A stretch of DNA of 64,000 bases, taken from the NCBI GenBank assembly GCA_965218695.1, contig OZ244651.1, positions 1,376,001 through 1,440,000 on the forward strand, given 5' to 3'. Below are positions 980-24,913 of the stretch, in pieces. Position numbers and translations under genes: made by a program. Origin of the DNA: Nitrosopumilus sp. Its GTDB lineage: Archaea > Thermoproteota > Nitrososphaeria > Nitrososphaerales > Nitrosopumilaceae. Every line of letters starts with the position of its first letter. Position 1 is the stretch's first letter. The notes beneath the pieces are model-generated. The model was given only the letters and a program-made list of their open reading frames with translations. It was not told the DNA's origin and did not search any database.

Positions 980-1086
980 CTGCAACAGCCTGTTTTTTAT
1001 CCTTCTTCTTGTAACCCTGCACCATTACAGACCGGATGCATCTGAATCCGGCCGGCCGGCCGGCATGCAGGCAGGCAACAACGACC

Positions 1087-2121: not shown

Positions 2122-2149
2122 GTGGGGCTTGCCCGGTATCATGGGATGG

Positions 2150-2245
2150 TTTGTAATTTATAGGATATACTGGTATACTTGGCATTCTATATAGGACTAA
2201 TGCAGATCTATTGATAACGTAAACTATGGTCGTATTTTTTACAAT
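2150..2245. promoter_or_regulatory. AT-rich divergent promoter region between the PhoU-type regulator and pstC
   Basis: AT-rich gap between divergent genes with repeated TATAGGA motifs (ttataggatatac, ctatataggacta). Operator not proven. Confidence 0.4.
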
Positions 2246-2268
2246 CGGTGCGGTTCTGTCCATATCAT

Positions 2269-3252
2269 ATGCCAAGGGATCATCTTGCAGGCCGGATACG
2301 AAAGGAGGGAAGATCCCCCCTTGCCGACAAGATCTTCAAGGTGGGCACGACCATCGCCGGAATCTACGTGCTTGCCATAATCGCCATCATGGTTCTGCAG
2401 CTTGGCTGGGAGTCCGGACCGATCTGGGAGGAGGAAGGCATTGCAGGCTTCGTCGGGGGCACCGACTGGAACCCCGTGGAGGGGAGGGAGTCGTTTGGCA
2501 CCCTGCCATACATAGTGGGCACGCTGACAACATCTGCCATCGCAATGGTGATCGCCCTGCCGCTCAGCATCGGCATAGCGATGTTTGTGATGATAGTCCC
2601 CAAACGGATCGGCCAGCCCATGGGATATCTCATCGAGCTGCTTGAGGCGGTGCCAAGCGTAGTCTACGGGCTGTGGGGACTGTTCGTCTTTAGAATCTAC
2701 TTTAGGGACATAATCGAAAAGCCGCTCCATGACATGTTTGGCGACTCGATATTCCTGTTCTCGGGAACGCCGTTCGGACTCGACGTCCTCTCTGCAAGCA
2801 TCATACTTGCAATAATGATAATTCCGACCATATCTGCCGTGTCCCGGGAGGTGATGATGGCAGTACCACACCAGCAGAAGGAGGCCGCATACATGCTCGG
2901 CTCCACCACCTGGGAGATGTTCCGGTTGGCGGTGTTCCCATACTCCAAGACCGGACTGATGGGCGCCTCGGTCCTTGGACTGGGCCGTGCCATCGGGGAG
3001 ACCCTGGCAGTCACCATGCTGATTGGAAACGCCATCGGATTCTCTGCAATACCGCAGTCGCTCTTTCACCCAAGCCAGACCATGTCAAGCATCATTGCCA
3101 ACGAGTTTATCGAGGCATCCCCTGCATCCCTGCACCTGCCTGCACTGATTGGAGTGGGGCTTGTGCTGCTGCTGGTTGCGATGACGGTAAGCGTATTTGC
3201 CCACTATATAGTCGCGAGGATGATAAAGGTCCAGGAGGGCGGCGTCCATTGA
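2269..3252 (+). CDS. pstC: Phosphate ABC transporter permease PstC
   Basis: ELLEAVPSVVYGLWG, EAAYMLGST and LGLGRAIGETLAV motifs. Confidence 0.95.
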   Translation: MPRDHLAGRIRKEGRSPLADKIFKVGTTIAGIYVLAIIAIMVLQLGWESGPIWEEEGIAGFVGGTDWNPVEGRESFGTLPYIVGTLTTSAIAMVIALPLSIGIAMFVMIVPKRIGQPMGYLIELLEAVPSVVYGLWGLFVFRIYFRDIIEKPLHDMFGDSIFLFSGTPFGLDVLSASIILAIMIIPTISAVSREVMMAVPHQQKEAAYMLGSTTWEMFRLAVFPYSKTGLMGASVLGLGRAIGETLAVTMLIGNAIGFSAIPQSLFHPSQTMSSIIANEFIEASPASLHLPALIGVGLVLLLVAMTVSVFAHYIVARMIKVQEGGVH

Positions 3253-4181
3253 GCGTGACTCCCAGGAGCCGGCGGCGTGCGGAGATTCGCGCCATGTTCA
3301 AGTCAAACGTACGCAGGAGGCTTACAGTCGACAAGGTTATGATCAGCGGCATCACCTGTTGTGCATTTATTGCAATCGTCCCGCTGTTCTGGATACTGGG
3401 GCAGCTTGTAGTGGGCGGCGCACCCGCACTGACACTTGACTTCTTTACCCAGACGCCCGGGGCGATCGGCGCCGGAGCCATCAACATCGGACCTGCCATT
3501 CAGGGAACCCTGATAATAATCGGACTCTCGTCGCTCATAGGGATTCCCCTGGGGATCAGTGCCGGAATCTACCTCTCCGAGGTGGGAGACAACAGGATCG
3601 TCAAGCAGATCCGGTTCTTTCTGGACGTGTTCATGCAGATTCCCTCCATCGTTCTTGGCCTGTTTGCGTTTCTGGCAATCGTTCTGCTTTTGGGACACTT
3701 TTCAATCTGGGCCGGCGCATTTGCACTCTCGCTGATCATGTTCCCGATCGTCGCACGATCCACCGAGGAGCAGCTCAAGATGGTCCCATGGACGTACAGG
3801 GAGGCAGGGGTTGCACTGGGGATGAAGAAGGTCACCATTGCGTTTCGAATAGTACTTGCGACTGCAAAGCGCGGCATGCTGACTGGAATACTGCTGTCGG
3901 TATCGCGGATTGGCGGCGAGACTGCCCCCCTCATAATGACGATTCTGGGCAGCAGCCAGTTCTTCTCAAGCCTGGATGCGCCCATGGACGCGCTGCCGCT
4001 GAGAATATGGCGGTTCTCGCTGCTTCCTTACGAGGAGGCGCGTCTGGCAGGCTGGGGGGCCGCGCTCGTGCTGGTGATTATAATCCTTGCAATACATGTC
4101 GGCGTCAGGTACTACTTTCAGGGAAGGAGAGGCAGCAAAGGTTTATTGCCAAAGAGCATGGCAGGAGCAAACAAGGGATGA
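3249..4181 (+). CDS. pstA: Phosphate ABC transporter permease PstA
   Basis: [17 protein letters not shown] and RIGGETAPL motifs. TTG start overlaps the pstC stop. Confidence 0.95.
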
Positions 4182-5002
4182 CTGCTATACTATCACAGGA
4201 TGGCACTGCCAAACCTACCATGTTGTCCCCCCCAAAGCCTGAAGTCCGTTACAAGATGGTTACCGACGGCGTAAACGTGTACTATGGCGACTATCTTGCA
4301 GTCAAGAACGTCAGTCTGAAATTTCCCGAAAACTCTGTCACCGCGCTGATCGGCCCGTCCGGATGCGGCAAGACGACCTTTCTCAGATGCCTGAACAGGA
4401 TGCATGATATGACTCCCGGTTCCCGGGTGGAGGGGAAGGTGATGATTGACTCGACTGATCTGTATGATGGCAGCATAGATCCGATATACCACCGGCGAAA
4501 GGTCGGCATGGTATTCCAGAAACCCAACCCGTTCCCAACGATGTCCATATACGACAACGTCGTCTCCGGCGTAAAACTCAACGGGGTAAAAGACCACGAC
4601 ATCCTTGACGAGATAGTCGAGGACAGTCTGAAGATGTCCTATCTGTGGGACGAGGTCAGAGGCGATCTAAAGAAGCCTGCGATGAACCTCTCCGGCGGCC
4701 AGCAGCAGAGGCTCTGCATCGCGCGCGCGCTGGCAATCCAGCCCGAGGTGCTGCTGATGGACGAGCCCGCATCGGCCCTTGACCCAATCGCGACACAGAA
4801 GATTGAGGAGATGATAAGGGATCTGGCAAAAGAGTACTGCATCATTATCGTAACCCACAACATGCAGCAGGCAGTCCGATGTTCTGACTACACTGCATTC
4901 ATGTATCTGGGTGATCTGGTCGAGCATGGGGATACGGCACAGATCTTCCAGAATCCCAAAAACGAGCTCACTGCACGATACGTAGAGGGCCAGTTCGGCT
5001 AG
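4178..5002 (+). CDS. pstB: Phosphate ABC transporter ATPase PstB
   Basis: GPSGCGKT Walker [32 protein letters not shown] 4178 overlaps the pstA stop. Confidence 0.96.
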
Positions 5003-5142
5003 ACATGATTAAGGTGCACATGCTCAGGCCCGTCGCCGGCGTGGGCGTGAAGATGCAAAACTGCTTACAAATCCGTGCCTATACTGAAGATCAAAAGTTT
5101 TTACACAGGGTCTCACATTTCCGGCTGGCAAATTTGAGAATG

Positions 5143-5459
5143 TCAAGCTTGAACCGGATGGTTCGATAATACAATGAAACTGCCCGGTGCATGTCCTGAA
5201 ATGTCCGGTAATGACTCGTTTATCTGCGTGCACCAGAACCTGACCGAGTCCAGCTTCAGGATCCGCTCGTACGGCGAGATCCTCCTGAGTATGCCGCGGG
5301 AGCACGCGTGCGCCACCCCACTGCGCGCCCTGCTGTTCCCCGCGCGCTTGAACTGCTCGTAGGACACCAACCCGCTCAGCGGGATAATCCTTGATACCGC
5401 GGCAAGCACGCTGGACGTGTCGAGATCGCCGGACGCAGCACCTCGTAATCCGTGGTCAT
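5143..5459 (-). pseudogene. Degenerate ORF remnant between pstB and phoU, possibly the N-terminus of a thaumarchaeal tyrosine-recombinase-like protein
   Basis: MTTDYEVLR start then an apparent frameshift into ...RIIPLSGLVSYEQF...ISPYERILKLDSVRFWCTQI. Family resemblance is from memory only. Confidence 0.25.
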
Positions 5460-5537
5460 ACCTTCATACACCCGTTTGTATACAAGGACGACAAAAGCAA
5501 CGGCGGATTAAAGTATCAGAATCACGCTTAAACCTGT

Positions 5538-6188
5538 ATGGCAAGGTTGATGGATCCTAATCTTGGACAACTCTCCGCCTCACTGTCCGAGATGGGAGAT
5601 CTTGCAATCGAGTGCGTCGAGCTTGCAATAGACTCATACATCAAGGGGACCAACACCATCAACCAGGTCCGGGATCTCTCGGCACGCATAACTGACAGGT
5701 ATCATGATGTGGGAAACCTGATATTCAACACCATTCTAAAGTTCCAGCCGGTGGCATCCGATTTCAGGTTCATCCGTTCTGCAATCGAGATCTCCTACAC
5801 GTTCCACCGGTTTGGCCGCTATGCATACGACATAACGCTTGTACGCGACAGGTTCGGCGACATCTCATGCTGTAAGACAGGATGGCTGTACCAGGTGTCA
5901 AACGAGACGCTCCGGATGACCAAGGATGCCATGCAGTCCTTTGCGTTGCTTGATATTGGAAAGGCAAACATGATTCAGATAAACGAAGAGTATGTCGACA
6001 AGCTGTACCTTGAGAGGATCTCGATGCTGGTTGACTCCGAGGATACCCGCTGCGCGCTGGCCGAGGCCCTCTTGCTAAAATATCTTGAAAGGATTGCAGA
6101 TCACGCCCTGTTCATGAGCAGGGCAGTCAACTATATCGTGACCGGTGAGTACGGCCCGGAGGCTCCCCCGTCATCCCCTGCAGACTAG
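5538..6188 (+). CDS. phoU: Phosphate signalling complex protein PhoU
   Basis: QPVASDFR, RFGRYAYDI and YLERIADHA motifs, downstream of pstB. Confidence 0.9.
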   Translation: MARLMDPNLGQLSASLSEMGDLAIECVELAIDSYIKGTNTINQVRDLSARITDRYHDVGNLIFNTILKFQPVASDFRFIRSAIEISYTFHRFGRYAYDITLVRDRFGDISCCKTGWLYQVSNETLRMTKDAMQSFALLDIGKANMIQINEEYVDKLYLERISMLVDSEDTRCALAEALLLKYLERIADHALFMSRAVNYIVTGEYGPEAPPSSPAD

Positions 6189-6478
6189 CAGCACGCCCCG
6201 TCACACATAACCGGAATCTTCCTGCTGGCTTCCGTAATGTCTGCAATCAGCGCGGAGAGCTGCGGACTTGATATGCTGTACATGACCCTCTTTCCCTCGT
6301 CCCTCGATCTGACGATGCCGCACCTCTTCAGAGTCCTCAGGTGGTGTGAGACCAGCGGCTGGCCCTTCCCCGTTCTGCAGACCAGCTCGCCCACCGACGA
6401 TTCCCCGTCCTGAAGCATCGTTAGAATCTCAAAGCGCGCCTCGTCGCAGATGCATCTTAAAAGCCCGATCCCATTCAT
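6185..6478 (-). CDS. arsR: ArsR/SmtB family repressor with C-terminal Cys cluster (CDGACC)
   Basis: wHTH motif QPLVSHHLRTL, divergent from arsC. Confidence 0.88.
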   Translation of the reverse strand: MNGIGLLRCICDEARFEILTMLQDGESSVGELVCRTGKGQPLVSHHLRTLKRCGIVRSRDEGKRVMYSISSPQLSALIADITEASRKIPVMCDGACC

Positions 6479-6512
6479 ATAAATGTAAATTTATATAAAC
6501 TAATATTTATGT
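6477..6512. promoter_or_regulatory. Putative ArsR operator: two overlapping 8-4-8 palindromes
   Basis: ATATAAAT-gtaa-ATTTATAT (6477-6496, perfect) and ATATAAAC-taat-ATTTATGT (6493-6512, imperfect) fill the 40-bp arsR/arsC gap. Confidence 0.6.
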
Positions 6513-6518
6513 GATGGC

Positions 6519-6914
6519 ATGCCAAGAAAGGTCCTCTTCGTCTGCAGGGAGAATGCAGGGCGCAGCCAGATGGCAGAGGGGTTCGCCCGGAATCTTGCGC
6601 CGCACCTTGATGTCATGAGTGCAGGCACCGAGCCGGGATCAAAGCTGAATCCTGTAGTGGTGCAGGCGATGGGGGAGGTCGGGATAGACATTACACGGCA
6701 GAAGCCAAAGGCACTGACAAGCCGGATGCTCGGCGAATCGGTCCCAGTCAGCATGGGGTGCATTGATGAGGAGTCGTGCCCTGTGACGCTTGCCGAGGGC
6801 ATGGCTGACTGGGGGATAACGGATCCCCGGGATGCAGACATTGGGCAGGTCAGGAGGATTCGTGACGAGATAAGGGAGCGGGTTCTGCGCCTGATTGAAG
6901 AATTCGATGCATGA
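6519..6914 (+). CDS. arsC: Thioredoxin-type arsenate reductase (LMW-PTP fold)
   Basis: CRENAGRS P-loop plus MGC...CP distal cysteines and W...DP. Confidence 0.9.
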   Translation: MPRKVLFVCRENAGRSQMAEGFARNLAPHLDVMSAGTEPGSKLNPVVVQAMGEVGIDITRQKPKALTSRMLGESVPVSMGCIDEESCPVTLAEGMADWGITDPRDADIGQVRRIRDEIRERVLRLIEEFDA

Positions 6915-7591
6915 TGGCATACTCCAACCTTCAAATGTTTGCAGTGGAACTGGTAGGGACGTTTGTCCTCGTGGTGTTTGCAACCGGCTCGATAGTGCAT
7001 GATGCCCAGGTTGGGGGGCTGTACGGGGTCTGGATTGCAGCTGCTGCGCCGTTTGTGGCACTGATAATCGGGGTGTACTCGTTTGGACGGATCTCAATGG
7101 CCCACTTCAACCCTGCAGTGACCATCGGGTACTACATTACAGGACACATCACGAGGATCCAGATAGCGTGGTATTTTGCAGCGGAGATGATCGGGGCCCT
7201 GCTGGGCTCGTTGTTTGTGATGGGTGTGATTGGCAGCGAGGCCGACCTTGGGGCAAACGCGCCAAGCCCGGACTATCCGCTGTCTTTGGTGTTTCCGGTG
7301 GAGGTGCTGGCCTCTGCCCTGCTCATGGCAGTGGTATTTGCGGTGGTGTATACGAAGGGGCTGAGGGGGTTCAGCGGGATTGCAATCGGCGGAATAGTGG
7401 GGCTGGACATACTCTTCCTGTCCTTCATATCCGGGGCATCGATGAACCCTGCAAGGGCGCTGGCGCCCGCGCTGCTTTCAGGAACGCTTGATCATCTCTG
7501 GCTGTACTGGAGCGCGCCCTTTGTGGGAACCGTGATCGTCGCCGTCCTGTTTCGGGGACGGTTTGAACGGCAGAGGCGGCCGGAGTCGTAG
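6911..7591 (+). CDS. MIP family aquaporin/aquaglyceroporin, probable arsenite channel
   Basis: HFNPAVT and MNPARAL NPA motifs. Translationally coupled to arsC. Confidence 0.9.
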   Translation: MMAYSNLQMFAVELVGTFVLVVFATGSIVHDAQVGGLYGVWIAAAAPFVALIIGVYSFGRISMAHFNPAVTIGYYITGHITRIQIAWYFAAEMIGALLGSLFVMGVIGSEADLGANAPSPDYPLSLVFPVEVLASALLMAVVFAVVYTKGLRGFSGIAIGGIVGLDILFLSFISGASMNPARALAPALLSGTLDHLWLYWSAPFVGTVIVAVLFRGRFERQRRPES

Positions 7592-11704: not shown

Positions 11705-12211
11705 ATGAAGATCTACATACTGAGGCACGGAAAGGCAGAGGGCTTTGCAGCCGGAGTCCAGAGTGACGCCAAAAGAAGACTGACGCCTGCCGGCCGTCGT
11801 GAGATGGAACTGGTAGCCGACGGAATAAAGAACATCAACGTCTCCTTTGACTACGTAGTGTCAAGTCCGCTTGCCCGGGCCAGGGAGACTGCCGATATCG
11901 TGGCAAGATCCCTCCATGGGAATGACATGACAGTAACCGTGTGGGATGAGATGAAGCCCGAATCCAACGTGACAGATGCGCACAGACTGCTTGCCAAACT
12001 GCCTCCAGACACCCGGATACTTCTTGTCGGCCATGAGCCGCATCTCTCCTGCCTGGCATCGTCGATAATATCTCAGACCGGCGCTGCTACTGCTGCAATA
12101 AACCTCAAGAAGGGGGGACTTGCGATCCTGGATGGCAATACCCGCAATTCCAAGATTACCGGGACACTGCGCAGTCTCCTTACCCCTCGGCAGATAAGAC
12201 TATGCAGATAG
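11705..12211 (+). CDS. sixA: Phosphohistidine phosphatase SixA
   Basis: LRHGKA, SSPLARARET, LVGHEP, KKGG. Confidence 0.92.
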   Translation: MKIYILRHGKAEGFAAGVQSDAKRRLTPAGRREMELVADGIKNINVSFDYVVSSPLARARETADIVARSLHGNDMTVTVWDEMKPESNVTDAHRLLAKLPPDTRILLVGHEPHLSCLASSIISQTGAATAAINLKKGGLAILDGNTRNSKITGTLRSLLTPRQIRLCR

Positions 12212-12215
12212 AGAT

Positions 12216-13790
12216 GTGAATCAATTGGGTGGTGACAGTGCAGAAACAAAACCGGCACAAGTCCGGAATCTTGTGAAGATCAAGGCCGCCTCCGTTCTGG
12301 ATCTTGGTTCAAACTCTGTCAAGCTTGCAAACTATGCCATTAACCGCCACGGTACCTACAAGCCATACCACCAGGAATCCGCACGCCTCAAGCTCTTTGA
12401 CGGCATGGAAGACGAGGTTCTCGAGGAGGAGTATGTCGACAAAACCGTAGAGTCCCTCAAGCTCTTTAGAAATATCGTTGATTTTGAGAACATATCCTAC
12501 GTGATATCCGTTGCCACAAGCGCCATAAGGGACGCCAAGAACAGGGACGAGATAGTACAAAGGATCCGCAGGGAAGCCGGCTTTGACTTTAGGATACTTT
12601 CAGATCATGACGAGGCGGTATTCTCATACACCGGGGCCATCCGGGCCCTTCGCATTCCATCCGTACTGTTCTTTGATATTGGCGGGGGCAGCCTTGAGAT
12701 GGTGCTTGCCAAAGACTATGGGATCAAGAAGGTCCTGTCACTGCCGCTTGGTGCGCTGAGACTGACTAGGATGTTCTCTGACGGGCCCACATACGAGACG
12801 ACTGATCTCGACAGAATGACCAACCATGTCCGCAAGACCCTTCCGAGCCGGGATGATCTTGGCCTGTCCGGTTCGGAGAGGCCGGTGCTAGTCGGCGTGG
12901 GCGGAATCCTGCGGGCACTGGCAAGGTACAACCAGTATCGCCGGGAATACAGCCTCTCAAAAGTACACAACTACCGGCTCGGCCATGACTCGCTAGCAGA
13001 GATCTACAAACGTATTTGCTCCCTTCCTGTAGACAAGATTGCCAGCATACCTGCAATCGGAAAGGGGCGGGCAGATATCGTCAAGGCAGGCAATCTTGTG
13101 ATTCTGCAGCTTATGAAGACGCTGGGATTTGACAGCCTTACGGTGAGCGCCCACGGACTCCGGGAGGGAACCCTTGCACTATCGCTCCAGTACCCGAAGA
13201 AGTTTGACGACGAATCCCTGGCCCATTCGGATATCCGGGACGTGGTCTGCACCCGTCCCAGCGATCCGGCAGAATCGGCAGGCAATCTTGTCCACCTGAT
13301 GTTCTCCATGAACCTCATGTCGGGCCACGAGAGGGATCTGCTCTCCTACGCACTAACCGAGATCGACAACCTCGGGGCCTTTAGGGATGTTGAAAATGTC
13401 CTGTATTCGGTCATGGATAATGACAGCCATCTGAGCCACAAGGACCAGCTCACCGTGGCGCTGGCACTAATCTATTCCAAAAAGAAGAACAAGATAGATC
13501 CGCTCATACTCAGGTTTGAGAACATACTGGAATCAAGTGACAAGAAACTGATTAAAAAGATATCATCTGTCGTCTCCATATGTGACATATTCCACAAGAC
13601 GTCTGCAAGGGTGGATGCTGCATCCGATTCTCCTGACTCCATCACGATCTCAATCCAGCCAAAGACGCGTATCTTTCCAGAGATGCTGCTGCACCAGATG
13701 CGCCGAAGGCTGGAAGGCACGCTTGGAATCTCGATTGAATATGATGTGCATTATCCCGAATCCGACCATTCTGATGCCGCGAAAACGTGA
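12216..13790 (+). CDS. ppx: Exopolyphosphatase Ppx/GppA family
   Basis: LDLGSNS, ATSAIRDA, DIGGGSLE, GLREG. Confidence 0.92.
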   Translation: MNQLGGDSAETKPAQVRNLVKIKAASVLDLGSNSVKLANYAINRHGTYKPYHQESARLKLFDGMEDEVLEEEYVDKTVESLKLFRNIVDFENISYVISVATSAIRDAKNRDEIVQRIRREAGFDFRILSDHDEAVFSYTGAIRALRIPSVLFFDIGGGSLEMVLAKDYGIKKVLSLPLGALRLTRMFSDGPTYETTDLDRMTNHVRKTLPSRDDLGLSGSERPVLVGVGGILRALARYNQYRREYSLSKVHNYRLGHDSLAEIYKRICSLPVDKIASIPAIGKGRADIVKAGNLVILQLMKTLGFDSLTVSAHGLREGTLALSLQYPKKFDDESLAHSDIRDVVCTRPSDPAESAGNLVHLMFSMNLMSGHERDLLSYALTEIDNLGAFRDVENVLYSVMDNDSHLSHKDQLTVALALIYSKKKNKIDPLILRFENILESSDKKLIKKISSVVSICDIFHKTSARVDAASDSPDSITISIQPKTRIFPEMLLHQMRRRLEGTLGISIEYDVHYPESDHSDAAKT

Positions 13791-13824
13791 GATGTGCCCT
13801 GCCCATGTCACTTGGAAATGGAAT

Positions 13825-15369
13825 GTATGAATTCACCTGCCCCTTATATCAGTCGACCAACTTCTTCGGCCACGCTCTTGCCATGTGCCCTCCACGTGAG
13901 GACGCACGTGACAAAATCTGCAAGGCGCTTCATGGCCTTGGAGCCGCCCTTGGTCTGCCCGCTTATCTTGCGGAACACCACCAGGTAGCGCAGCGCCCTC
14001 TCGCTGGCGTTGTTTGTAGGCTCGACGCCGGGATGCTCCAGGAACGCAAACATGCGGTGCAGGTGCCTCTCGAGCTTGTCCAGCACCTTTTGCATGTCGT
14101 CATCGTTACCACCACCACCGGCATCGCGGTACCGGTCAAGCACGTCCTGCATGGTGCGGTTCATCGTATGCCGCAGCTGTGGCGAGCGCGCCTCCTGCGC
14201 GGCCAGCAGTTTTGCCCTCTCAAACACCCACTTGTGGTCCTCGTGGAGCTGCTGCCGCCGCCGCCGGACACGTTTGGTCTCGGGAGGCACGGCGCAGTAT
14301 TTTTCTGCCAGGTGCCTTGTCTGCCGGAGGTCGTGCGCCCAGCACGACTGGTGCATGCCGTCCTTGTCAAACCTGTCATATCCGGTGTACCCGTCAGTTA
14401 TCGCCACCCCGTCAAATTTGTCCATGGCATCGAGCATGAGCGTGGCCCTGCTCTGGCTGATGTTTATTGCGATGTTTTTGCCCGACTGTGCCACGTTTGC
14501 GTGTACCTTCTGGCCGTCGTTTCGCCAGCTGGTTTCGTCAAACCCGGCACAGTCAGAAGCCTCCACTTCCCCGAGGATCCTGCCTGCCTCGTGGCCCGAG
14601 GCGTCCCCGACGCGTGCCATGATGTTGTTGACGGTGGATCCTGCAAGCATAATGCCCGTTATGGAGCGCACCGCGACCGAGATTCCCTTGAGCGGCACCC
14701 GTGCCGCGCGCAGTTCTGAGACGAGTCCGACCATGCCCTTGCCGAAGTTGCCCCGCCGCGGCAGGTCGTTTGGAGCATCTTCCCTGCGGCCGCATGAGCC
14801 GCATACTGCAGTCTCCACGCGGTGCCGCGTCTCGCACGCAGTCACCCTGATGTCCGTGATGTCCCGCACGCGCGGACTGCCAATCGCCATCCGGCCGCCG
14901 CCGCCGCCGCACCCGCATTCCGGGAGCACCGGCACCCGCCTCCTGCCCGACTTCCTGCGCCCGAACCTGTGGGATACGGTCCTTTCCGGGTCGTGGGGGC
15001 GCGACGCCCCCGCGTGTCCCTTTCTTCCCCCGCGCTTGGATTTGCCCTCCTTTTCCTGTTTTTTTGCCCGCTCCCTCTTCTGGGCCTTCCATTCCAGGGA
15101 TTCAGATGAGGGCGGCGTGTTGGGGTTTGTATAGTATGTCATGAGGCGTTCGCTGTACCCCAAGGCCCTTTCAAGACGTTCTATCCTGCCAAGTGCCTTC
15201 TCAAGATCGGATTTGAGGGTGGCAATCTCCCGGTTCCGTGCTAGGAGTTCCTCTTTTAGCTGGTCCCTGCTCATGTGCCGTGAATTTACCATGTAAAGTG
15301 ATGTGTATTGCCAGCATATGGATCAGTATGATCATTTTTTTGTGACAGGAAGGACAGGTGAATTCATAC
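13825..15369 (-). mobile_element. IS66-family element type A, copy 1 (single ORF, ISBst12-like)
   Basis: IR GTATGAATTCACCTG at both ends; 8-bp TSD AATGGAAT (13817-24 / 15370-77). Confidence 0.93.
13844..15292 (-). CDS. IS66 family transposase (type A)
   Basis: Coiled coil, Zn ribbon, FDETSW, TDGY, CWAH, PTNNASERALR. Confidence 0.93.
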   Translation of the reverse strand: MVNSRHMSRDQLKEELLARNREIATLKSDLEKALGRIERLERALGYSERLMTYYTNPNTPPSSESLEWKAQKRERAKKQEKEGKSKRGGRKGHAGASRPHDPERTVSHRFGRRKSGRRRVPVLPECGCGGGGGRMAIGSPRVRDITDIRVTACETRHRVETAVCGSCGRREDAPNDLPRRGNFGKGMVGLVSELRAARVPLKGISVAVRSITGIMLAGSTVNNIMARVGDASGHEAGRILGEVEASDCAGFDETSWRNDGQKVHANVAQSGKNIAINISQSRATLMLDAMDKFDGVAITDGYTGYDRFDKDGMHQSCWAHDLRQTRHLAEKYCAVPPETKRVRRRRQQLHEDHKWVFERAKLLAAQEARSPQLRHTMNRTMQDVLDRYRDAGGGGNDDDMQKVLDKLERHLHRMFAFLEHPGVEPTNNASERALRYLVVFRKISGQTKGGSKAMKRLADFVTCVLTWRAHGKSVAEEVGRLI

Positions 15370-15800
15370 AATGGAATGCAGCTAAGCGAAATGTGCTTTG
15401 ATCTAGGCAAAATCTGACAAGAATGCAAGCAGATCAATAAGGGTACGGCCCTATGGTTTTTGTTGTCTAGACAAAAAACCAAGCAGGGCCGCGATCTACT
15501 GAACAATCCAAGAATATATCAAGATGTCGCAAGCGGCATGAAAAACATGCTTGCCTGCGCCAACACGTCAAACAGGTACAATGCGGTATTTGGAACAGAC
15601 GATCTAAATCACGGCATGCTGAGGGGAGCCACCATGGATTCGTCCGTAGGCGGGTGCGCAAACGCGGTAAAGCGCACGCACTGCGACGCTCCCTCCGACA
15701 GGTGGCATGCATCGGCAATCAAGGGGATGGAGCAGGGCACGGTTCAGCGCGCATTCGAAGAAATGGTGGCAGTGCAACTTGACACATTCAAAAAACTGGG

Positions 15801-17441
15801 ATAACTGCATAGTTTTTTGATCAAATGTTGAACTCCATGCCTACGCGCGTCTATGCAGTTTTTTGACGTGGAGCCAGGCCCTCGCGCAGGATCGTGCCAA
15901 GATCATCTCCCCTTGCCTTGCATGTCTGCTTGATGCTCATCAGCGTGGCAATGGCATCTGCACCCTTCTTTGACCTGCTCCCGTTGCTGTTCTTGCGCAG
16001 GATGACGCACGGCCTGATGGCCCGCTCTGCCCGGTTGTTGTGGTATTCGACGCCGTCTGTCTCCAGAAACGCAAACAGGTGGCCTTTTTCCCGCACCAGC
16101 CTCTTGCGCATCCTGTTGCAGTGCTTGCAGTCGCGGTCCTTTTCGAGCCTGCCGATAAGTGACGCGATACGACGATCCAGCCTCTTCTTTGCGGCAAGCG
16201 CGTCTGTCCCTCCCGGAACGGCGCCGTCGATGTGCGAGTCCCACAGTATCGCGCGCAGCGTCCTTGCGTGACGCTTGTAGTCGTAGCCGGGATTCTTGTA
16301 TTTCAGGGTGTCCTTGATGTCCCGGGCGTAATGAAGGTGGCACTTTTGGTGTTCGGATCCGATGACGTTCCACGCGGCCCACGAGTCAGACGTGACGCAT
16401 CCCGGGTAGTCCTTGCCGAGCATCTTTTTTGGAACCTTCGAGTTCCTGTGGCGGTGCACCTCGTAGATTACGGCGTACCTGGCTACAGCCACCCACAGCC
16501 AGTAGTTCGTGCCGTCGACGCGCCAGATTGTCTCGTCCCCGTTTATCGCAGGCGAGTTTCTTACCTCCTCCTTGATCTTCTCGTACAGCGGCCCGAGCTC
16601 CCGGGCCATCCTGCACACCATGCGGTTTATCGCAGATTCCGTGATTCTTGCCGAGTACATCATCATGACAATATTGCATATTCTGAGGTCTGACATGCCG
16701 TGCAGCCTGAGGATGACCATCATTATCATAAAGTTGATCCCGTACCTGGAGTTTGGCAGTGCCAGCGGAGTCCTGCCGGACACGGTCCTCTTGCAGTTCC
16801 TGCAACGCCTTCTCTTTACTGTCACCTTGATGTGCTTTAGTTCCGTCTTGGCAGCCTCCCTTACCACCTTTGTGTACGTGGATACGCACTCGGAGAGGTC
16901 GGAGCTGCCGCAGTTGTCGCACGTGTGGGGATCTGCCGTCTCCTCTGCGTCTATTCTTTCAGGACGCGCAAGGCCCGTGCGTTTGTGGTCACTTGGCTTG
17001 CCCTTGGCCTTGCCCTTGCCCTTTGCGCGGCGCCGGGTACTGCCGGTCTTTTTGTCCGGTTTTGCGCCGATGCTCCTTGCAACGGCAGCCGATATGATGC
17101 CCTTTGCCTCCTGCAACTCTGCCGTGAGATCCTGGATCTGTTTGAGGGCGGCAGCGTAAAGATCAGCGAGTTTGGCCATCTGCCGGTCTTTTTCGGCCAT
17201 CTGCCGGTCTTTTTCGGCCATCTGCTCTGCCATCACACCCACTTTTTCCTCCAGTTCTGCAATCTTTGACTCGGAATTATCATCAGACATATGCAAACCG
17301 TGGGCAACAATGATCTAAAAATTAGGACGGAGAGAAAAACTCGATCAAGTGATCAAAAATAGTTTTAAAAAATTAGACAGACGCGGATTTTCTGATTGTA
17401 GATATGGAGTTCAACATTTGATCAAAAAACTACACAGATAC
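15801..17441 (-). mobile_element. IS66-family element type B nested in ISH3-A
   Basis: ~38-bp IR containing TAGTTTTTTGATCAAATGTTGAACTCCAT; 8-bp TSD AAACTGGG (15793-800 / 17442-49). Confidence 0.92.
15851..17296 (-). CDS. IS66 family transposase (type B)
   Basis: GDETIW, SDSW, QKCHLH, HNNRAERAIR; QMAEKDR heptad repeat. Confidence 0.92.
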   Translation of the reverse strand: MHMSDDNSESKIAELEEKVGVMAEQMAEKDRQMAEKDRQMAKLADLYAAALKQIQDLTAELQEAKGIISAAVARSIGAKPDKKTGSTRRRAKGKGKAKGKPSDHKRTGLARPERIDAEETADPHTCDNCGSSDLSECVSTYTKVVREAAKTELKHIKVTVKRRRCRNCKRTVSGRTPLALPNSRYGINFMIMMVILRLHGMSDLRICNIVMMMYSARITESAINRMVCRMARELGPLYEKIKEEVRNSPAINGDETIWRVDGTNYWLWVAVARYAVIYEVHRHRNSKVPKKMLGKDYPGCVTSDSWAAWNVIGSEHQKCHLHYARDIKDTLKYKNPGYDYKRHARTLRAILWDSHIDGAVPGGTDALAAKKRLDRRIASLIGRLEKDRDCKHCNRMRKRLVREKGHLFAFLETDGVEYHNNRAERAIRPCVILRKNSNGSRSKKGADAIATLMSIKQTCKARGDDLGTILREGLAPRQKTA

Positions 17442-18407
17442 AAACTGGGCAAATTCCCAAAAGAAGGACTGGACATCGCAATCGACATGCACCTCATACC
17501 GCGTTATGACCGGGCACCCGGAGGGGAGCTGACCCGTTCCAAATACAAAAACGGAACCACGTATTTTGAGCGTTACATGACAGTCCAGTGCGTAAACGAC
17601 AAGATGCGCATGGTCCTTGCAGCATCATACCTCAAAAGGCTCGAATTCGTGCCTGATTACGTGGATGCAGTCCTCAAGACCATGGCAGGGATGGGCATCA
17701 GGATCCGCCTGGCGCGGAATTCTTCTCAGTCGACACGATAAGCAGGCTGCGGGCACGGCGTAAGGTACCTGATGCCGCAGGAACACGCCCAACGTGCACT
17801 GCTTGACCGGGAATTCTTCTCAGTCGACACGATAAGCAGGCTGCGGGCAAACGGCGTAAGGTACCTGATGCCGTGCAGGAACACGCCCAACGTGGTGGAA
17901 GCCCTGCAGGATTTTGCACAAGGAAAGAGGGAAAGGATCTCAACAAACGTGATTGAGAACAACCAGGGCTCCGTCGAATATTCCATGATAATAACTGAAA
18001 GAAAAAACGCCAAAGACCCTGATGTCCCGGAAGAGAAATACATCGGGTTTGCAACAAACCACCCCACAATCAAGACGGAGGCTTATGCCAAAAGATGGGG
18101 AATAGAGACCGGGTACGGTAAAATCGAGGAGTGCAGGGCCAAGACGCGGATTTCGGACATGGAATCGCGGATGTTGTGTTTTTACTATTCCCTAACATTG
18201 TACAATGAATGGATAATCGTCAGGGCAATGCTTTCTGACGGTACCGAAAGGCAGAGTGTCATGACCATGCTCACGTTCAAGGTGCAGTTGGAATCACTCC
18301 TCATACGCCAGTCCAAACCGCCTACCTGATCTCAGATGAGGCACTTTTCGCTTAGCTGGAATGGCTCAAAAACTTATAGATGACCGGCCCTCTCTTAAAA
18401 TCTGAAA

Positions 18408-19118
18408 TTGTCTGCTGCCACAGGATCACCCAAAAACAACAGCGCAACCATTCCCGGAAAACTCATAGTGGTCGAGGGCATTGACGGCTCCGGCAAGTCC
18501 ACCCAGCTCCGCCTGCTTGAGCAGTGGCTGCGGTATGACGGGTTTGAGGTGTTCAGGACCGAGTGGAACTCCTCGGACATGGTCCGCTCCATCACCTCCA
18601 AGGGAAAAAAGAAGGAACTGCTTGTCCCTACCACGTTCAGCCTTCTCCACGCAACCGATTTTGCCGACCGGTTTGAGAGGAACATCCTGCCGTTGCTACA
18701 TGCAGGATACTTCGTCCTTGCCGACAGGTACATCTACACTGCGTATGCAAGGGATGCAACACGCGGGTGCGATCCCAACTGGATAAGGCACGTCTACAAC
18801 TTTGCAATAAAACCTGACATTACATTCTACTTTCGGGTGCCTCTTGATGTCGCGATGGACAGAATCCTTTCTGGCAGGCCGAAGATAAAATTTTACGAGG
18901 CAGGCATGGATCTGCATCTTGCCAAGGACTCTTACGAGAGCTTTCGGATGTTCCAAAGCAGGATAATCGCCCAGTACGAGGCGATGAGCCAGCGGGAGAA
19001 CTTTTGCATCATGGATGCCACCGCCCCTATTCCAAAACAGCAGCAGCTGATGAGAGACGAGGTGCGACGGCTTCTGCCAGAAGAGACAGAGGGGCAGACA
19101 CGCGCGGAGGCTTCCTGA
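18408..19118 (+). CDS. Thymidylate-kinase-like protein 1 (canonical P-loop); candidate polyphosphate kinase subunit
   Basis: EGIDGSGKST, ADRYIYTAYARD; tandem with a paralog and next to ppx once the IS stack is removed. Confidence 0.85.
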   Translation: MSAATGSPKNNSATIPGKLIVVEGIDGSGKSTQLRLLEQWLRYDGFEVFRTEWNSSDMVRSITSKGKKKELLVPTTFSLLHATDFADRFERNILPLLHAGYFVLADRYIYTAYARDATRGCDPNWIRHVYNFAIKPDITFYFRVPLDVAMDRILSGRPKIKFYEAGMDLHLAKDSYESFRMFQSRIIAQYEAMSQRENFCIMDATAPIPKQQQLMRDEVRRLLPEETEGQTRAEAS

Positions 19119-19853
19119 TTGGCAGATCCGACAGGCGTGGTAACCAACAGAACGCCAGAGTGGTACGGCACAAAGAGATCCGGCGGCATTCCATACCTGA
19201 AGGACCTGGAGATCTCCGGACGGCTTATCGTCATTGAGGGGCCGGACGCATCGGGCCGGAGCACGCAGATCGAGCTGCTCACTGCAAAGCTTGAGGCAGA
19301 AGGATACGCGGTGCTTAACACGGGGCTAAACCGCTCTGAGATTATCAGCGAGGGAATCTTGGAGGCCAAGCGCAACGTCTCCCTGGGAAAACGGACGCTT
19401 GCCCTGTTTTATGCAGCCGACTTTGCAGATCAGCTGGAGCACAAGATTATTCCTGCACTCCAGTCAGGGCACGTAGTCTTGGCAGACAGATACATCTACA
19501 CCCTGATGGCCAGAAACACGGTCCGGGGAATCGCACGGAAGTGGTCAAGTGATCTGTACAGCTTTGCACTCGTGCCGGATCTGATCTTTTATATCGACGT
19601 GGACCCGTACGTCCTGGTTCACCGCGTATTTGCAAAGAGGCAGTACCTGGATCACTACGAGTCCGGCGCGGATCTTGGAATATCCGATGACATGTTTGAG
19701 TCGTTTATCAAATACCAGCAAAAGCTCGCAAGGGAGTTTAGGGTTCTCAAACAAAGGTACGACCTGAACGTGATCGACGGAAACCGCACAATCGAGCAGC
19801 TCAACGTGGCATTGGATGAACAGATCAACCTCTATCTCTCCAAGGCGTCATGA
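19119..19853 (+). CDS. Thymidylate-kinase-like protein 2 (altered P-loop GRST); candidate partner subunit
   Basis: EGPDASGRST, ADRYIYTLMAR; TTG start abuts the previous stop. Confidence 0.85.
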   Translation: MADPTGVVTNRTPEWYGTKRSGGIPYLKDLEISGRLIVIEGPDASGRSTQIELLTAKLEAEGYAVLNTGLNRSEIISEGILEAKRNVSLGKRTLALFYAADFADQLEHKIIPALQSGHVVLADRYIYTLMARNTVRGIARKWSSDLYSFALVPDLIFYIDVDPYVLVHRVFAKRQYLDHYESGADLGISDDMFESFIKYQQKLAREFRVLKQRYDLNVIDGNRTIEQLNVALDEQINLYLSKAS

Positions 19854-20097: not shown

Positions 20098-21498
20098 ATG
20101 GCTACAGAAAATCTTGACATGGATTATTCAAAGTATGATTTTAAGGACTCGACTGAGATGTATGTCCACCTCAGCAAGAAGGGCCTGACCAAGGAGACTG
20201 TAATAGGCATCAGCAAGATGAAGGATGAGCCGCAATGGATGCTTGATTTCAGGCTGCGGTCCTTTGAGATCTTCATGAAGAAGCCGATGCCTACGTGGGG
20301 CGGAAACCTGAGCGTTATTGACTTTCAAAACATCTACTATTACGCAAAGGCATCTGAAAAGACAGAAAAGAGCTGGGATGACGTTCCGGATAATGTCAAG
20401 AGTACGTTTGACAAGCTTGGGATTCCAGAGGCTGAAAAAAAGTTTCTTGCAGGCGTCGGTGCGCAGTACGAGTCGGAGGTAGTGTACCACAATCTGCGAG
20501 AAGACCTCCAAAAGCAGGGAGTCCTCTTTTTAGATACCGACTCTGCCCTGAAGGAGCAGCCTGAGATATTTAAGAAATATTTTGCAAAGGTCATTCCTCC
20601 GGAAGACAACAAGTTTGCGGCACTAAACAGCGCAGTCTGGAGCGGAGGCTCGTTCATCTATGTTCCGCCCGGCGTGAAAGTTGACATGCCCCTGCAGGCG
20701 TACTTTAGAATTAATGCCGAGAACATCGGCCAGTTTGAGCGAACCCTGATAATAGTTGACGAAGGCGCAGAAGTTCACTATATCGAGGGGTGCACGGCCC
20801 CGGTATACTCTTCAGAATCACTCCACTCTGCCGTAGTAGAACTGGTGGCACACAAGGATGCACGTCTGAGATATACCACCATTCAGAACTGGAGCAACGA
20901 TGTCTATAACCTGGTCACAAAGCGTGCGTATGCATACGAGGGGGCAACAGTGGAATGGATCGACGGAAACATCGGAAGCAAGCTTACCATGAAGTATCCC
21001 GGAGTCTATCTCATGGGCGAGAGGGCATACGGCGAGACGCTCTCCATTGCATTTGCCGGCAAGGGACAGCACCAGGATACCGGTGCCAAGATGGTACACC
21101 TTGCGCCAAACACAACCTCCAAGATCACATCCAAGTCTGTCAGCAGAATGGACGGAAGATCCACATACCGGGGGCTCCTCAATGTAGCAAAGGGGGCCAC
21201 AGGCGTAAAGTCCACGGTAAGGTGCGATGCATTGCTGCTAGACGATACCTCCAAGACCGACACGTATCCCTACATGGAGATCAACCAGGAGGATGCCACC
21301 GTCACCCACGAGGCGACGGTCGGAAAGATCGGCGACGAGCAGATATTCTATCTGATGAGCAGGGGGTTCAGCGAGGAGGAGGCGCTGTCACTGATAGTCA
21401 ACGGGTTCATGGAACCGTTCACAAAGGAGCTGCCAATGGAGTACGCAGTAGAGCTAAACAGACTCATAAAACTAGAGATGGACGACTCCGTCGGCTAG
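20098..21498 (+). CDS. sufB: Fe-S cluster assembly protein SufB
   Basis: [24 protein letters not shown]. Confidence 0.97.
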
Positions 21499-21518
21499 TC
21501 TTGGCGTTTTGATCGGCA

Positions 21519-22925
21519 ATGTCCCAAGAAACTCTTTCAAGAATCAATACCAGCCATATTGATGAGATCTCCTCGTCTGGCCATGAGCCCGAGTGGCTCA
21601 ACGACTATAGGAGAAACTCCCTGTCCATCTACAACAGCCTGCCCATCGAGATGTCGCCACTCTACAACAAGTACACCGACGCAAAAAAGATGGATCCGGA
21701 CCAGGTGTTCCTCTCTACGTCCACTGCCGGAACGGTTCCGGGATTCCTTGACAGGCGGCTGAGGGAACTCGAAGACAAGACGTGCATAATTCAGATCGGG
21801 ACAAACATTCACCGGATAAGTATTCCAGAATCCCTAAAGTCCAAGGGGCTGATCGTCTCCTCGATATCAGATGCCATTCAGAACAACCCTGATCTTGTGA
21901 GGACTGCCTTGGACTCTCTAAACTCCGGGGAGGACAAGTTTACAGCACTCAACAACGCAGCATTCAACTCAGGCATGTTCATACACATTCCGCGCAACCT
22001 TGTCCTGGAAGAATCCATCCACCTTTTGGTGTGCCTGTCAGAAGATGGCCGCTCGACAATCTCCCGGAATGTCATCCTCGCAGGCCAGAGCAGCAAGGCC
22101 ACGATAGTCCAGGAGGTCTACTCCCCCAAGTCAGACGCCCGGCAGCAGCAGGCATACCTTGAGACGCTAAACATAACTGCCGGTGAAAACTCACACCTGG
22201 ACTTTACCACCCTGCAGATGATGGATCAGCACTCTGTAAACTTTTCAACACGGCGGACGGACCTTGCAAGGGACGCCACTGTAAACTGGTATTCGGGCCT
22301 CTTCGGCTCCATGCTGTCCAGATACAAGATAGACTACTATCTCAACGGGTCCGGTTCTTCTGCCAACGACTCTGAGGTGATATTTGGCAACCGCGACCAG
22401 TCCTTTGACATTCAGACCAGCGTGAACCATCAGAGTCAGGCAACCGAGGCAAGGGTGGTCGAAAAGTCAATTCTAAGGGACAGATCAAAGTCGCTCTTCA
22501 AGGGGATGATAAGAATCATGGAGAATGCCGCAAAATCAAACTCATTCCTGTCTGGACGATCCATCCTTCTGGACAAGGATGCAAAGTCAGACGCGATTCC
22601 GGGACTTGAGATATTCACAAACGACGTAAAGGCGACACACTCTGCATCCGTTGCACAGATTGACGAGGAGCAGCTCTTCTATCTCAAGACCAGGTGCCTT
22701 AGCCACGAGGAGGCAGAAAGAACCATCGTGGAGGGATTCTTGGAGCCCCTCTCACGAAAGATGTCCTTTCAGGTAAGGGCGTGGATTGCATATCTTATAG
22801 AGTCCAAATGGGAGAACAGGGAGCTTGGCATCAATACAGACGAGGAACTTGCAAAATTCGTAGAGATCGAGGAGACGCGCTACAACGAGGATGCAGAAGT
22901 TGAGCAGCACTACAAGTACCGGTGA
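21519..22925 (+). CDS. sufD: Fe-S cluster assembly protein SufD
   Basis: PGLEIFTNDVKATHSASV, QLFYLKTR. Confidence 0.93.
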   Translation: MSQETLSRINTSHIDEISSSGHEPEWLNDYRRNSLSIYNSLPIEMSPLYNKYTDAKKMDPDQVFLSTSTAGTVPGFLDRRLRELEDKTCIIQIGTNIHRISIPESLKSKGLIVSSISDAIQNNPDLVRTALDSLNSGEDKFTALNNAAFNSGMFIHIPRNLVLEESIHLLVCLSEDGRSTISRNVILAGQSSKATIVQEVYSPKSDARQQQAYLETLNITAGENSHLDFTTLQMMDQHSVNFSTRRTDLARDATVNWYSGLFGSMLSRYKIDYYLNGSGSSANDSEVIFGNRDQSFDIQTSVNHQSQATEARVVEKSILRDRSKSLFKGMIRIMENAAKSNSFLSGRSILLDKDAKSDAIPGLEIFTNDVKATHSASVAQIDEEQLFYLKTRCLSHEEAERTIVEGFLEPLSRKMSFQVRAWIAYLIESKWENRELGINTDEELAKFVEIEETRYNEDAEVEQHYKYR

Positions 22926-23239
22926 TTCATGTGGCAGAATGGATTAGAGCCTGCGGCATCAAGGATGTTCCTGAGGGCCAGCTCTTCGGGTTTGTGCACG
23001 GTGAGAAGAGAATACTGCTTGCCAATGTGCGGGGGAGCATACATGCAACCGACCTTGTATGCACGCATGCAGATGCGGATCTCTCGACGGGCTTTCTTAG
23101 CGATGAGGGGGTGCGGTGCCCGCTGCACCTTTCCGTGTTTAATCTGGATACCGGGGAGCCGCAGAACCCGCCTGCAGAGGACTCCCTCAGGGTGTACAAT
23201 GTTAAAATAGACGGCGACTCGATTTACGTGGAGGTTTGA
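22922..23239 (+). CDS. Rieske-type ferredoxin
   Basis: CTH...CPLH Rieske ligands. Confidence 0.92.
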   Translation: MIHVAEWIRACGIKDVPEGQLFGFVHGEKRILLANVRGSIHATDLVCTHADADLSTGFLSDEGVRCPLHLSVFNLDTGEPQNPPAEDSLRVYNVKIDGDSIYVEV

Positions 23240-23240
23240 G

Positions 23241-24482
23241 ATGCAGAGGACACAGTTGTTTGAGAATTTGAGAAAGGACTTTCCAATACTGCAGCGCACC
23301 GTCAGGGAGGACAAACCCCTTGTCTATCTGGACAATGCATCCACCACGCAGAAGCCCAGACAGGTCATTGATGCCATAACTGACTACTACCAAAACTACA
23401 ACGCAAACATTCATCGTGCCGTATATGCTCTGGCCGAGGAGGCGACCCAGGCATACGAGGCGGCCCGGGACAAGGTGGCAGACTTTGTCAACGTCAAAAA
23501 CCGGGAGGAGATCATCTTTGTCCGTGGTACCACCGAGGCCATCAATCTGGTTGCGTATGCATGGGGCAGGAGCCATGTGGGCAAGGGGGACGTGATTGTC
23601 ACCACCGAGTACGAGCACCACAGCAACATCGTCCCCTGGCAGCTTCTTGCACAGGAGAAGGGAGCAAGGCTGGAGTATATCCGGATGGATGATAACGGGG
23701 AACTGATCCTTGATGATCTTGACCGGTATCTTGCCACCGGAAGGGTCAAGATTGTAGCGTTTAGCCTGATGTCCAACGTACTTGGAACAATAACTGATGC
23801 ACAGAGAATAATCAAGAGGTGCCAAGAGTCCAACGTCCTGACGCTGGTAGACGGAGCACAGGCAGTACCGCACATGCCAGTAGACTTGCAGAAGATCGGA
23901 TGCGACTTCTTCGCCTTCTCCGGCCACAAGATGCTCGGACCCACCGGAATCGGGGCGCTGTGGGTCAGAAAATCCGTTCTGGAGACCATGAGTCCGTTCC
24001 ATGGAGGGGGGGACATGATACGCGAGGTACACAAGTACGAGACCACCTGGAACGATCTCCCATACAAGTTCGAGGCAGGCACCCCAAACATCGCCGACGT
24101 CGTAGGGCTTGGGGCCGCAATCGACTATCTTACCGGAGTGGGAATGGCAAATGTGAGAAGACACGAAGTCGAGCTTACCGGATACGCACTGGAGAGGCTC
24201 TCGGAGGTGAAGGGACTCCACATCTATGGCACCATGGACGTATCAAAGCGCGGAGGCGTCATCTCGTTTAACTTTGCCGATGTGCATCCGCACGATGTGG
24301 CCCAGATAATGGACTCAGAGGGAATCGCAATCCGTTCCGGACACCACTGCGCCCAGGTGCTCATGGAGAGGATGAATGTTGCAGCAACATCCCGTGCCAG
24401 CTTTTACATATACAACACCAGGGAGGACGTTGATGCCCTGGTAAGGTCGTTAAACACTGTAGCGAGGCTCTTCAAGCTATGA
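23241..24482 (+). CDS. sufS: Cysteine desulfurase SufS
   Basis: YLDNASTTQKP, SGHKM, RSGHHCA. Confidence 0.96.
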   Translation: MQRTQLFENLRKDFPILQRTVREDKPLVYLDNASTTQKPRQVIDAITDYYQNYNANIHRAVYALAEEATQAYEAARDKVADFVNVKNREEIIFVRGTTEAINLVAYAWGRSHVGKGDVIVTTEYEHHSNIVPWQLLAQEKGARLEYIRMDDNGELILDDLDRYLATGRVKIVAFSLMSNVLGTITDAQRIIKRCQESNVLTLVDGAQAVPHMPVDLQKIGCDFFAFSGHKMLGPTGIGALWVRKSVLETMSPFHGGGDMIREVHKYETTWNDLPYKFEAGTPNIADVVGLGAAIDYLTGVGMANVRRHEVELTGYALERLSEVKGLHIYGTMDVSKRGGVISFNFADVHPHDVAQIMDSEGIAIRSGHHCAQVLMERMNVAATSRASFYIYNTREDVDALVRSLNTVARLFKL

Positions 24483-24913
24483 GCAGCAACGCTGACATAT
24501 ACCACGAGATGATAATCGACTACTCTAGGAACCCTGTAAACTATGGCAAGATGGAGGATCCTGATGTCACCTTTCACGACTCAAACCCGCTGTGCGGCGA
24601 CAGCATCGACATCGACATGAAGATCGACGGCCAGACCGTATCTGATATCAAATTCCACGGAAAGGGGTGTGCTATATGTATGGCCTGCTCATCTGTACTC
24701 ACCGAGATAACAAAAGGCAAGAGCATTGAGGATGTGCGAAAGATCGACAAGAACGACGTGTTGGGGGAGCTTGGGCTTGAACACCTACAGGCCGTGCGGA
24801 TAAAATGCGCCCTGCTCTCACTCAAAGTGCTCAAGTCTGCTCTCTACACGTATCTTGTGGAGCATGTCCGGGACGCAGACGGGCTCAAGGAAGAGGCCGC
24901 CAACCTGTACTGA
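24479..24913 (+). CDS. sufU: SufU/IscU scaffold
   Basis: NPLCGD, GCAI, RIKCALL. Confidence 0.92.
   Translation: MSSNADIYHEMIIDYSRNPVNYGKMEDPDVTFHDSNPLCGDSIDIDMKIDGQTVSDIKFHGKGCAICMACSSVLTEITKGKSIEDVRKIDKNDVLGELGLEHLQAVRIKCALLSLKVLKSALYTYLVEHVRDADGLKEEAANLY

Follow-up and report, generated by a model that had tools for sequence, protein, structure and literature searches.

Two abutting thymidylate-kinase-fold genes near sixA and ppx in a Nitrosopumilus genome as predicted subunits of a PPK3-type polyphosphate kinase

The window analysed here is a stretch of 64,000 nucleotides (nt) from a genome of Nitrosopumilus sp. (contig OZ244651.1), and all window coordinates given below refer to it. It carries sixA, ppx and two abutting genes of the thymidylate kinase fold, here called A and B, which are predicted to encode the catalytic and the regulatory subunit of a heteromeric polyphosphate (polyP) kinase of the PPK3 type; a stack of insertion sequences (IS) lies between ppx and A. 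The four genes, all on the forward strand, were assigned as follows.

11705-12211, forward strand: sixA, phosphohistidine phosphatase family (TIGR00249, 92.3 bits against a cut-off of 74.5), RHG motif at residues 7-9.
12216-13790, forward strand: ppx, Ppx/GppA exopolyphosphatase family, 524 amino acids (aa) (PF02541, E 3e-46).
18408-19118, forward strand: gene A, cPPK3 type, predicted catalytic, with the P-loop EGIDGSGKST and the motifs TEWNSS and DRY; PF02223 match.
19119-19853, forward strand: gene B, rPPK3 type, predicted regulatory, with the P-loop EGPDASGRST and DRY kept; PF02223 match.

This gene content, including the two abutting genes of the thymidylate kinase fold and their P-loops GKST and GRST, had been recognised in an earlier description made from the DNA alone (the original prediction), and profile matches and motifs confirm it. 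The RHG motif of SixA is intact, and a role of SixA as a phospho-His regulator, raised in the original prediction, is a possibility; ppx, a single-copy gene in this genome, reaches 228 bits on TIGR03706, under the cut-off of 307. The stop codon of A abuts the TTG start of B, and the two are adjacent thymidylate kinase paralogues, one of the c-type and one of the r-type, that share 35% identity. Horizontal novelty as judged by GC content was considered and rejected, since A and B have 54% GC and their neighbours 51-59%.

PPK3 was described in Sulfolobus acidocaldarius (Hofmann et al., J Biol Chem 2026, PMC12995831; preprint 10.1101/2024.08.28.610084) in an article that does exist and reports the heteromeric polyP kinase mentioned in the original prediction; it is cited throughout from the portion that was available. 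According to this source Saci_2019 (cPPK3) makes polyP, Saci_2020 (rPPK3) is inactive by itself and boosts activity about 6-fold, no dTDP (deoxythymidine diphosphate) is formed by either of them, and the complex (SaPPK3) is an alpha2-beta2 assembly whose reaction favours ATP formation from polyP. The operon order is sixA-ppx-cPPK3-rPPK3-CHAD, PPK3 is considered to have derived from thymidylate kinases separately from PPK2, and loss of the arginine of the DRX motif is the explanation offered for the inactive helper subunit (PMC12995831). STK_15430 of Sulfurisphaera tokodaii (PDB 2plr, 4nzy, 4rzx, 5h70), deposited as a deoxythymidine monophosphate (dTMP) kinase, was reassigned as a cPPK3 homologue, and for SixA the available text says that it 'might participate', nothing stronger, and names no substrate (PMC12995831).

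For comparison, A and B proteins were gathered from 145 loci, which gave 232 distinct sequences; K or R was demanded at the Walker A position, and two open reading frames without a P-loop as well as fragments under about 150 aa were left out. These loci (numbered with the prefix L) are the best matches to the window's own proteins, many of them kin, and the counts drawn from them are neither independent nor family-wide. Ten loci of family f37 served as the Sulfolobus-type reference, anchored by L130, whose A protein is identical to 2plr over 211 residues, and by L128 and L129, whose B genes carry the Saci_2020 forward primer of PMC12995831 (exact in L128).

A tree was built from 97 of the 232 sequences, with a small outgroup of 13 thymidylate kinases. 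In it the A and B proteins, the Sulfolobus-type pair included, stand apart from the outgroup with a support of 99/97, and all 42 B rows lie on one side (100/99) with the Sulfolobus-type B proteins among them; the phylogeny against the Sulfolobus pair that had been proposed as a check therefore places the window's proteins in one clade with that pair, apart from canonical dTMP kinases. The best PDB match of A is 2plr/5h70 (E 9e-64), followed by true thymidylate kinases at 4e-15, and the same entry is the best match of B (E 4e-36; Foldseek E 1e-17, template modelling (TM) score 0.78). An AlphaFold2 model of B has the thymidylate kinase fold, with a mean pLDDT (predicted local distance difference test) of 84.5 and low confidence in the N-terminal 30 residues. 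Between A and its counterpart in L128 identity is 50%. No match to PF03976, the PPK2 profile, was obtained for A or B; PPK2 membership was rejected, this profile matching two other genes of the genome, and the link to PPK2 drawn in the original prediction has to be replaced by membership of PPK3, a family of separate origin.

The residues were tabulated for 112 A proteins and 107 B proteins, the latter consisting of 55 Nitrososphaerales-type, 42 bacterial and 10 Sulfolobus-type sequences. The window's A retains the Walker A lysine (K30), the DRX arginine (R107) and every one of the 18 alignment columns in which 90% or more of the 112 A proteins have a basic residue, and shows TEWN where thymidylate kinases have EP or FP; the lysine, the arginine, the basic cleft and the missing EP motif are the features of a cPPK3. 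From the conserved basic columns of A, B loses R60, K65, K69, H81, R88, R127, K161 and R216 and retains K84, R85, R124, R132 and R136. H81, R88 and K161 are invariant in the A proteins (112/112) and absent from every Nitrososphaerales-type B protein (55/55). The absence of eight conserved basic residues from B would fit a regulatory subunit. The marks of a canonical dTMP kinase are missing from both proteins, which have TEWN (A) and TGLN (B) in place of the EP/FP motif and fall in a separate clade, although both pass TIGR00041.

Comparison of the sequences shows A and B to be orthologues of the two PPK3 subunits. The pair is of a known kind, and the main proposal of the original prediction, catalytic and regulatory subunits of a polyP kinase instead of dTMP kinases, is already in print; for this locus it is supported by the tree, the residues and the 50% identity of A to the Sulfolobus-type protein. 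The preferred reading, with a probability of about 0.88, is that A and B form a heteromeric PPK3 which would buffer ATP from polyP while Ppx releases phosphate, its activity, complex and expression being predicted from orthology. A would be the likely catalytic and B the likely activating subunit, and phosphate would be moved reversibly between polyP and ADP/ATP. By analogy to Sulfolobus, an alpha2-beta2 complex would mainly use polyP to form ATP when the energy charge is low and would make polyP only at a high ATP/ADP ratio, and Ppx would degrade polyP to phosphate. The IS would represent recent intergenic insertions that split an ancestral sixA-ppx-A-B cluster, with A-B probably still transcribed from a promoter of its own. 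The elements and the motif concerned are listed here.

13825-15369, reverse strand: IS66-family element a, transposase at 13844-15292, 8-bp target duplication AATGGAAT; 19 near-identical copies in the genome, this site counted.
15379-18358, forward strand: ISH3-like element, 5-bp target duplication GAATG; fragmented transposase with partial matches to NF033541.
15801-17441, reverse strand: IS66-family element b, transposase at 15851-17296, nested inside the ISH3-like element, 8-bp duplication AAACTGGG.
18368-18379, forward strand: AAAAACTTATAG motif, 28 nt before the start of A and 9 nt downstream of the IS end, found once in the window.

The three IS that had been proposed at 13825-18358 (about 4.5 kb in total) are indeed present, with the correction that one is nested within another. 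IS66 element b was inserted after the ISH3-like element; for element a and the ISH3-like element the same junctions result under either order of insertion. The genome holds 12 near-identical copies of the ISH3-like element and 13 of element b (the site itself counted in both cases), and the uninterrupted ISH3-like form measures 1247 bp in sequencing-run contigs. The terminal base at the left end of element b (15801) is apparently altered, and the ISH3-like copy contains an 84-bp internal duplication (17715-17798) that other copies in the contigs lack. Among the contigs of four runs from one study, which may be the source of the genome itself, both unique flanks are covered and reach 28-29 letters into the IS ends (the bridging rule being 31 letters), and neither a piece spanning the stack nor a joint skipping the whole stack was found.

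The close spacing of ppx and the pair also stood: instead of about 85 bp, the distance from the ppx stop to the A start is 83 bp after plain removal of the IS and 79 bp when one copy of each duplication is removed as well. The relative L037 presents the empty site, without the IS stack between ppx and A, and the relative L036 has an uninterrupted cobA-hemD-sixA-ppx-A-B-sufB order in which ppx and A are about 220 bp apart. At its 3' end, ppx (13750-13790) matches intergenic DNA of L037 (L037:3190-3390) about 150 bp past its ppx stop; this suggests that a small deletion between short repeats may have altered the last Ppx codons.

All four frames are intact, with ratios of nonsynonymous to synonymous substitution (dN/dS) of 0.06-0.19; in pairwise comparison with L036 and L037 the values are 0.118 and 0.104 for A and 0.055 and 0.062 for B, the lowest of the four genes. 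Judged from these alignments, sixA, ppx, A and B are shown to be under purifying selection. Ten of 19 related loci have TTATAG at a like position before A, compared with 34 of 1379 background windows, figures that are suggestive only, the motif having been picked after the alignment was seen and the background being mostly coding DNA. From general knowledge of archaeal promoters we take AAAAACTTATAG to be a B recognition element (BRE)/TATA promoter; it is likely the one that serves the pair, and the insertions have not damaged it. Because the IS are located upstream of this TATA-like motif and the frames are intact under purifying selection, they probably do not silence A-B; the module described as masked by IS in the original prediction is thus hidden in its synteny.

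Several observations weigh against the PPK3 reading. B keeps the DRX arginine (R124, DRY), unlike the characterised rPPK3, and is 32% identical to the Saci_2020-like B of L128; the tree does not unite the A proteins (a single group in 21% of bootstrap trees); and both proteins pass the dTMP kinase profile TIGR00041 (A 89.6, B 92.7, cut-off 83.25). Two ppk2 genes could cover polyP turnover, and the motif upstream of A is missing in 9 of the 19 loci. An ISH3-like insertion disrupts gene A in L037, which with a B of 97% identity is the closest relative found. The pair also has a scattered distribution: 18 out of 129 other genomes in the genus and 89 out of 347 in the family carry it, as do 67 out of 201 in an order-wide sample. 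The split gene and this patchiness suggest that the PPK3 enzyme may be dispensable. The TIGR00041 scores, together with the PF02223 matches, the fold and the PDB entries of the closest relative titled dTMP kinase, would suit duplicated thymidylate (or other nucleoside monophosphate) kinases placed beside ppx by chance. This is highly improbable, however, because no dTDP is formed by the Sulfolobus orthologues (PMC12995831), other residues stand at the EP/FP motif, two further tmk genes are encoded in the genome, and the pair is missing from 111 of the 129 same-genus genomes searched, an ill fit for an essential tmk. Linkage was counted in the best 80 of 541 related loci, with up to 5 kb of flank fetched and some contigs short: the fetched flank of A contains ppx at 21 of the 35 archaeal loci and at 21 of the 45 bacterial ones, and the archaeal figure argues against a chance association. 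Decay of a PPK3 operon, in which the stack would cut the pair from a sixA-ppx promoter, expression would be lost and PPK2 would take over, is unlikely too, if less so; 4.5 kb of IS within the cluster, an IS-rich genome, the broken A of L037 and the two ppk2 genes agree with it, but the four frames are intact at the dN/dS values given, a conserved TATA-like motif stands between the IS and A, and in 14 of the 35 archaeal loci the fetched flank of A-B, some of it from short contigs, contains neither ppx nor sixA.

The DRX arginine is present in 55/55 Nitrososphaerales-type and 42/42 bacterial B proteins and in 0/10 of the Sulfolobus type (DGY), and the window's B does not show the loss that marks rPPK3 of the Sulfolobales. 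We would read this loss as a trait of the Sulfolobales lineage and not as family-defining, because the legend of Fig. S14 names only Saci_2020 and STK_15420 as rPPK3s (PMC12995831). Conversely, arginine replaces the Walker A lysine in 103 of the 107 B proteins, the four exceptions being all of Sulfolobus type and including the Saci_2020-like B of L128, so that in the alignment the assayed helper and the window's B are altered in opposite places. As aligned here, the DRX-loss account of helper inactivity does not carry over to 97 of the 107 helpers, since B and 97/97 non-Sulfolobales B proteins retain the arginine. A Walker A change from lysine to arginine usually cripples P-loop catalysis. The literature search found no paper on this change in the thymidylate kinase P-loop. 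A sub-case of the PPK3 reading is that B has a working phosphate/nucleotide site (an allosteric sensor) or residual catalysis, the Sulfolobus helper being a derived exception. Its evidence is that R132 follows the same pattern as the DRX arginine (97 non-Sulfolobales B proteins versus the Sulfolobus type), that none of those 97 proteins departs from R47 and R72, that purifying selection is stronger on B than on the three other genes, and that B proteins of the Nitrososphaerales type are nearly as similar to one another as the A proteins are (mean pairwise identity 0.685 vs 0.705), unlike in the Sulfolobus type (0.572 vs 0.719). On the other side stand the replaced Walker A lysine, the absence of H81, R88 and K161 from all Nitrososphaerales-type B proteins, conservation that may come from interface constraints, and loci that are best matches to the window proteins and no family-wide sample. 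It is thus a tentative idea, perhaps one chance in several, that outside the Sulfolobales B would be no dead pseudokinase and that its ligand site (Walker A arginine, DRX arginine, R72, R132) would sense nucleotide or polyP or carry out a second phosphotransfer; if so, regulation of the PPK3 common in ammonia-oxidising archaea and bacteria would differ from that of the sole assayed enzyme.

The genome (2.63 Mb, about 53% GC, completeness rating 99.99%) is rich in IS, and the best relatives of the locus are titled Nitrosopumilus sp. or Nitrosopumilaceae. The neighbourhood is one of polyP and phosphate genes: sixA and ppx become adjacent to the pair once the IS are removed, and a pstS-phoU-pstC-pstA-pstB-phoU-like cluster (names being a reading of Pfam matches) lies at 50-6188. 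After the phosphate ABC (ATP-binding cassette) transporter-like genes with two phoU come arsR, arsC-like and aquaporin genes; the whole group (50-7591) lies 4-12 kb upstream of sixA. Directly downstream of B a sufB-sufD-Rieske ferredoxin-sufS-sufU cluster occupies 20098-24913, and in L036, L037 and several further loci, too, B is followed by sufB. In several Nitrosopumilaceae loci (L049-L054, L123 and L124) the fetched flank of A-B has no ppx, or the pair and sixA stand head-to-head, which indicates frequent rearrangement of the cluster. The insertion in L037 (L037:3600-5100) is an ISH3-like element near codon 49 of A with a 5-bp duplication, and B, ppx and sixA are intact there.

The separate tmk whose presence had been proposed as a check was found at two places, C1:2104606-2105187 (TIGR00041 104 bits, above the cut-off) and C1:642705-643232 (78 bits, below it), so that canonical dTMP kinase candidates exist elsewhere; both are of the FDFP/NRY type, and the start codon of the C1:642705 gene is ambiguous. 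Two ppk2 genes (PF03976) were located at C1:418567-419409 and C2:192-1004, and for this reason A-B is not the sole candidate polyP kinase of the genome. They are about 80% identical in DNA, and the second lies on a 21-kb contig and may be a true paralogue or come from another strain. The genome gave no match to TIGR03705 (PPK1) and none to PF05235 (CHAD), a search that also missed the Sulfolobus CHAD control.

These results add a Nitrosopumilus-type member to the PPK3 family described in 2026. In the available portion of the source, PPK3 is reported mainly in Nitrososphaeraceae and Sulfolobaceae, and among the 29 Nitrososphaerota rows of Data S1, one of the 12 Nitrosopumilus rows and Nitrosotalea okcheonensis are scored as having both PPK2 and PPK3 (PMC12995831); at 89/347 genomes of the family and 18/129 of the genus, PPK3 is wider in Nitrosopumilaceae than that single row suggests. 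Judged by titles, no assay of a Nitrososphaerota PPK3 was evident in the literature search on PPK3, and a search on sponge polyP returned nothing on archaeal PPK3. The pair is a likely mesophilic enzyme for assays, and the published reason for helper inactivity, failing for 97 of the 107 helpers examined, becomes a testable question. The locus leaves unexplained the polyP-like granules reported in N. maritimus (PMC11082331, as far as available), a species scored 0 for PPK1-3 in Data S1 (PMC12995831). It is a mostly ordinary locus, with one twist visible in the alignment, namely that the helper keeps an active-site arginine lost in the studied helper.

Among known systems the closest is SaPPK3, which shares with the window the order sixA-ppx-c-r, the thymidylate kinase fold, a tmk elsewhere and the same tree clade. 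It differs in the helper, the window's B having DRY and a Walker A arginine whereas the Saci_2020-like B of L128 has DGY and a Walker A lysine, in that sufB and not CHAD follows the window's B, and in the three IS between ppx and A and the two ppk2 genes of the present genome. STK_15430 is the best PDB match for both A and B, but it is a protein of a thermoacidophile and the partner in its lineage has DGY (B of L130). PPK2 enzymes (PF03976) have in common with the pair a P-loop kinase core and reversible transfer between polyP and nucleotides, and differ from it in the profile, which A and B do not match, and in their separate origin according to the available portion of PMC12995831. Canonical thymidylate kinases (TIGR00041, PF02223) resemble A and B in fold, P-loop, DRX motif and hidden Markov model (HMM) matches; A and B are distinguished from them by the replaced EP/FP motif, an extra insert in the lid region (YEAGxD...), the conserved basic residues and a clade of their own (99/97).

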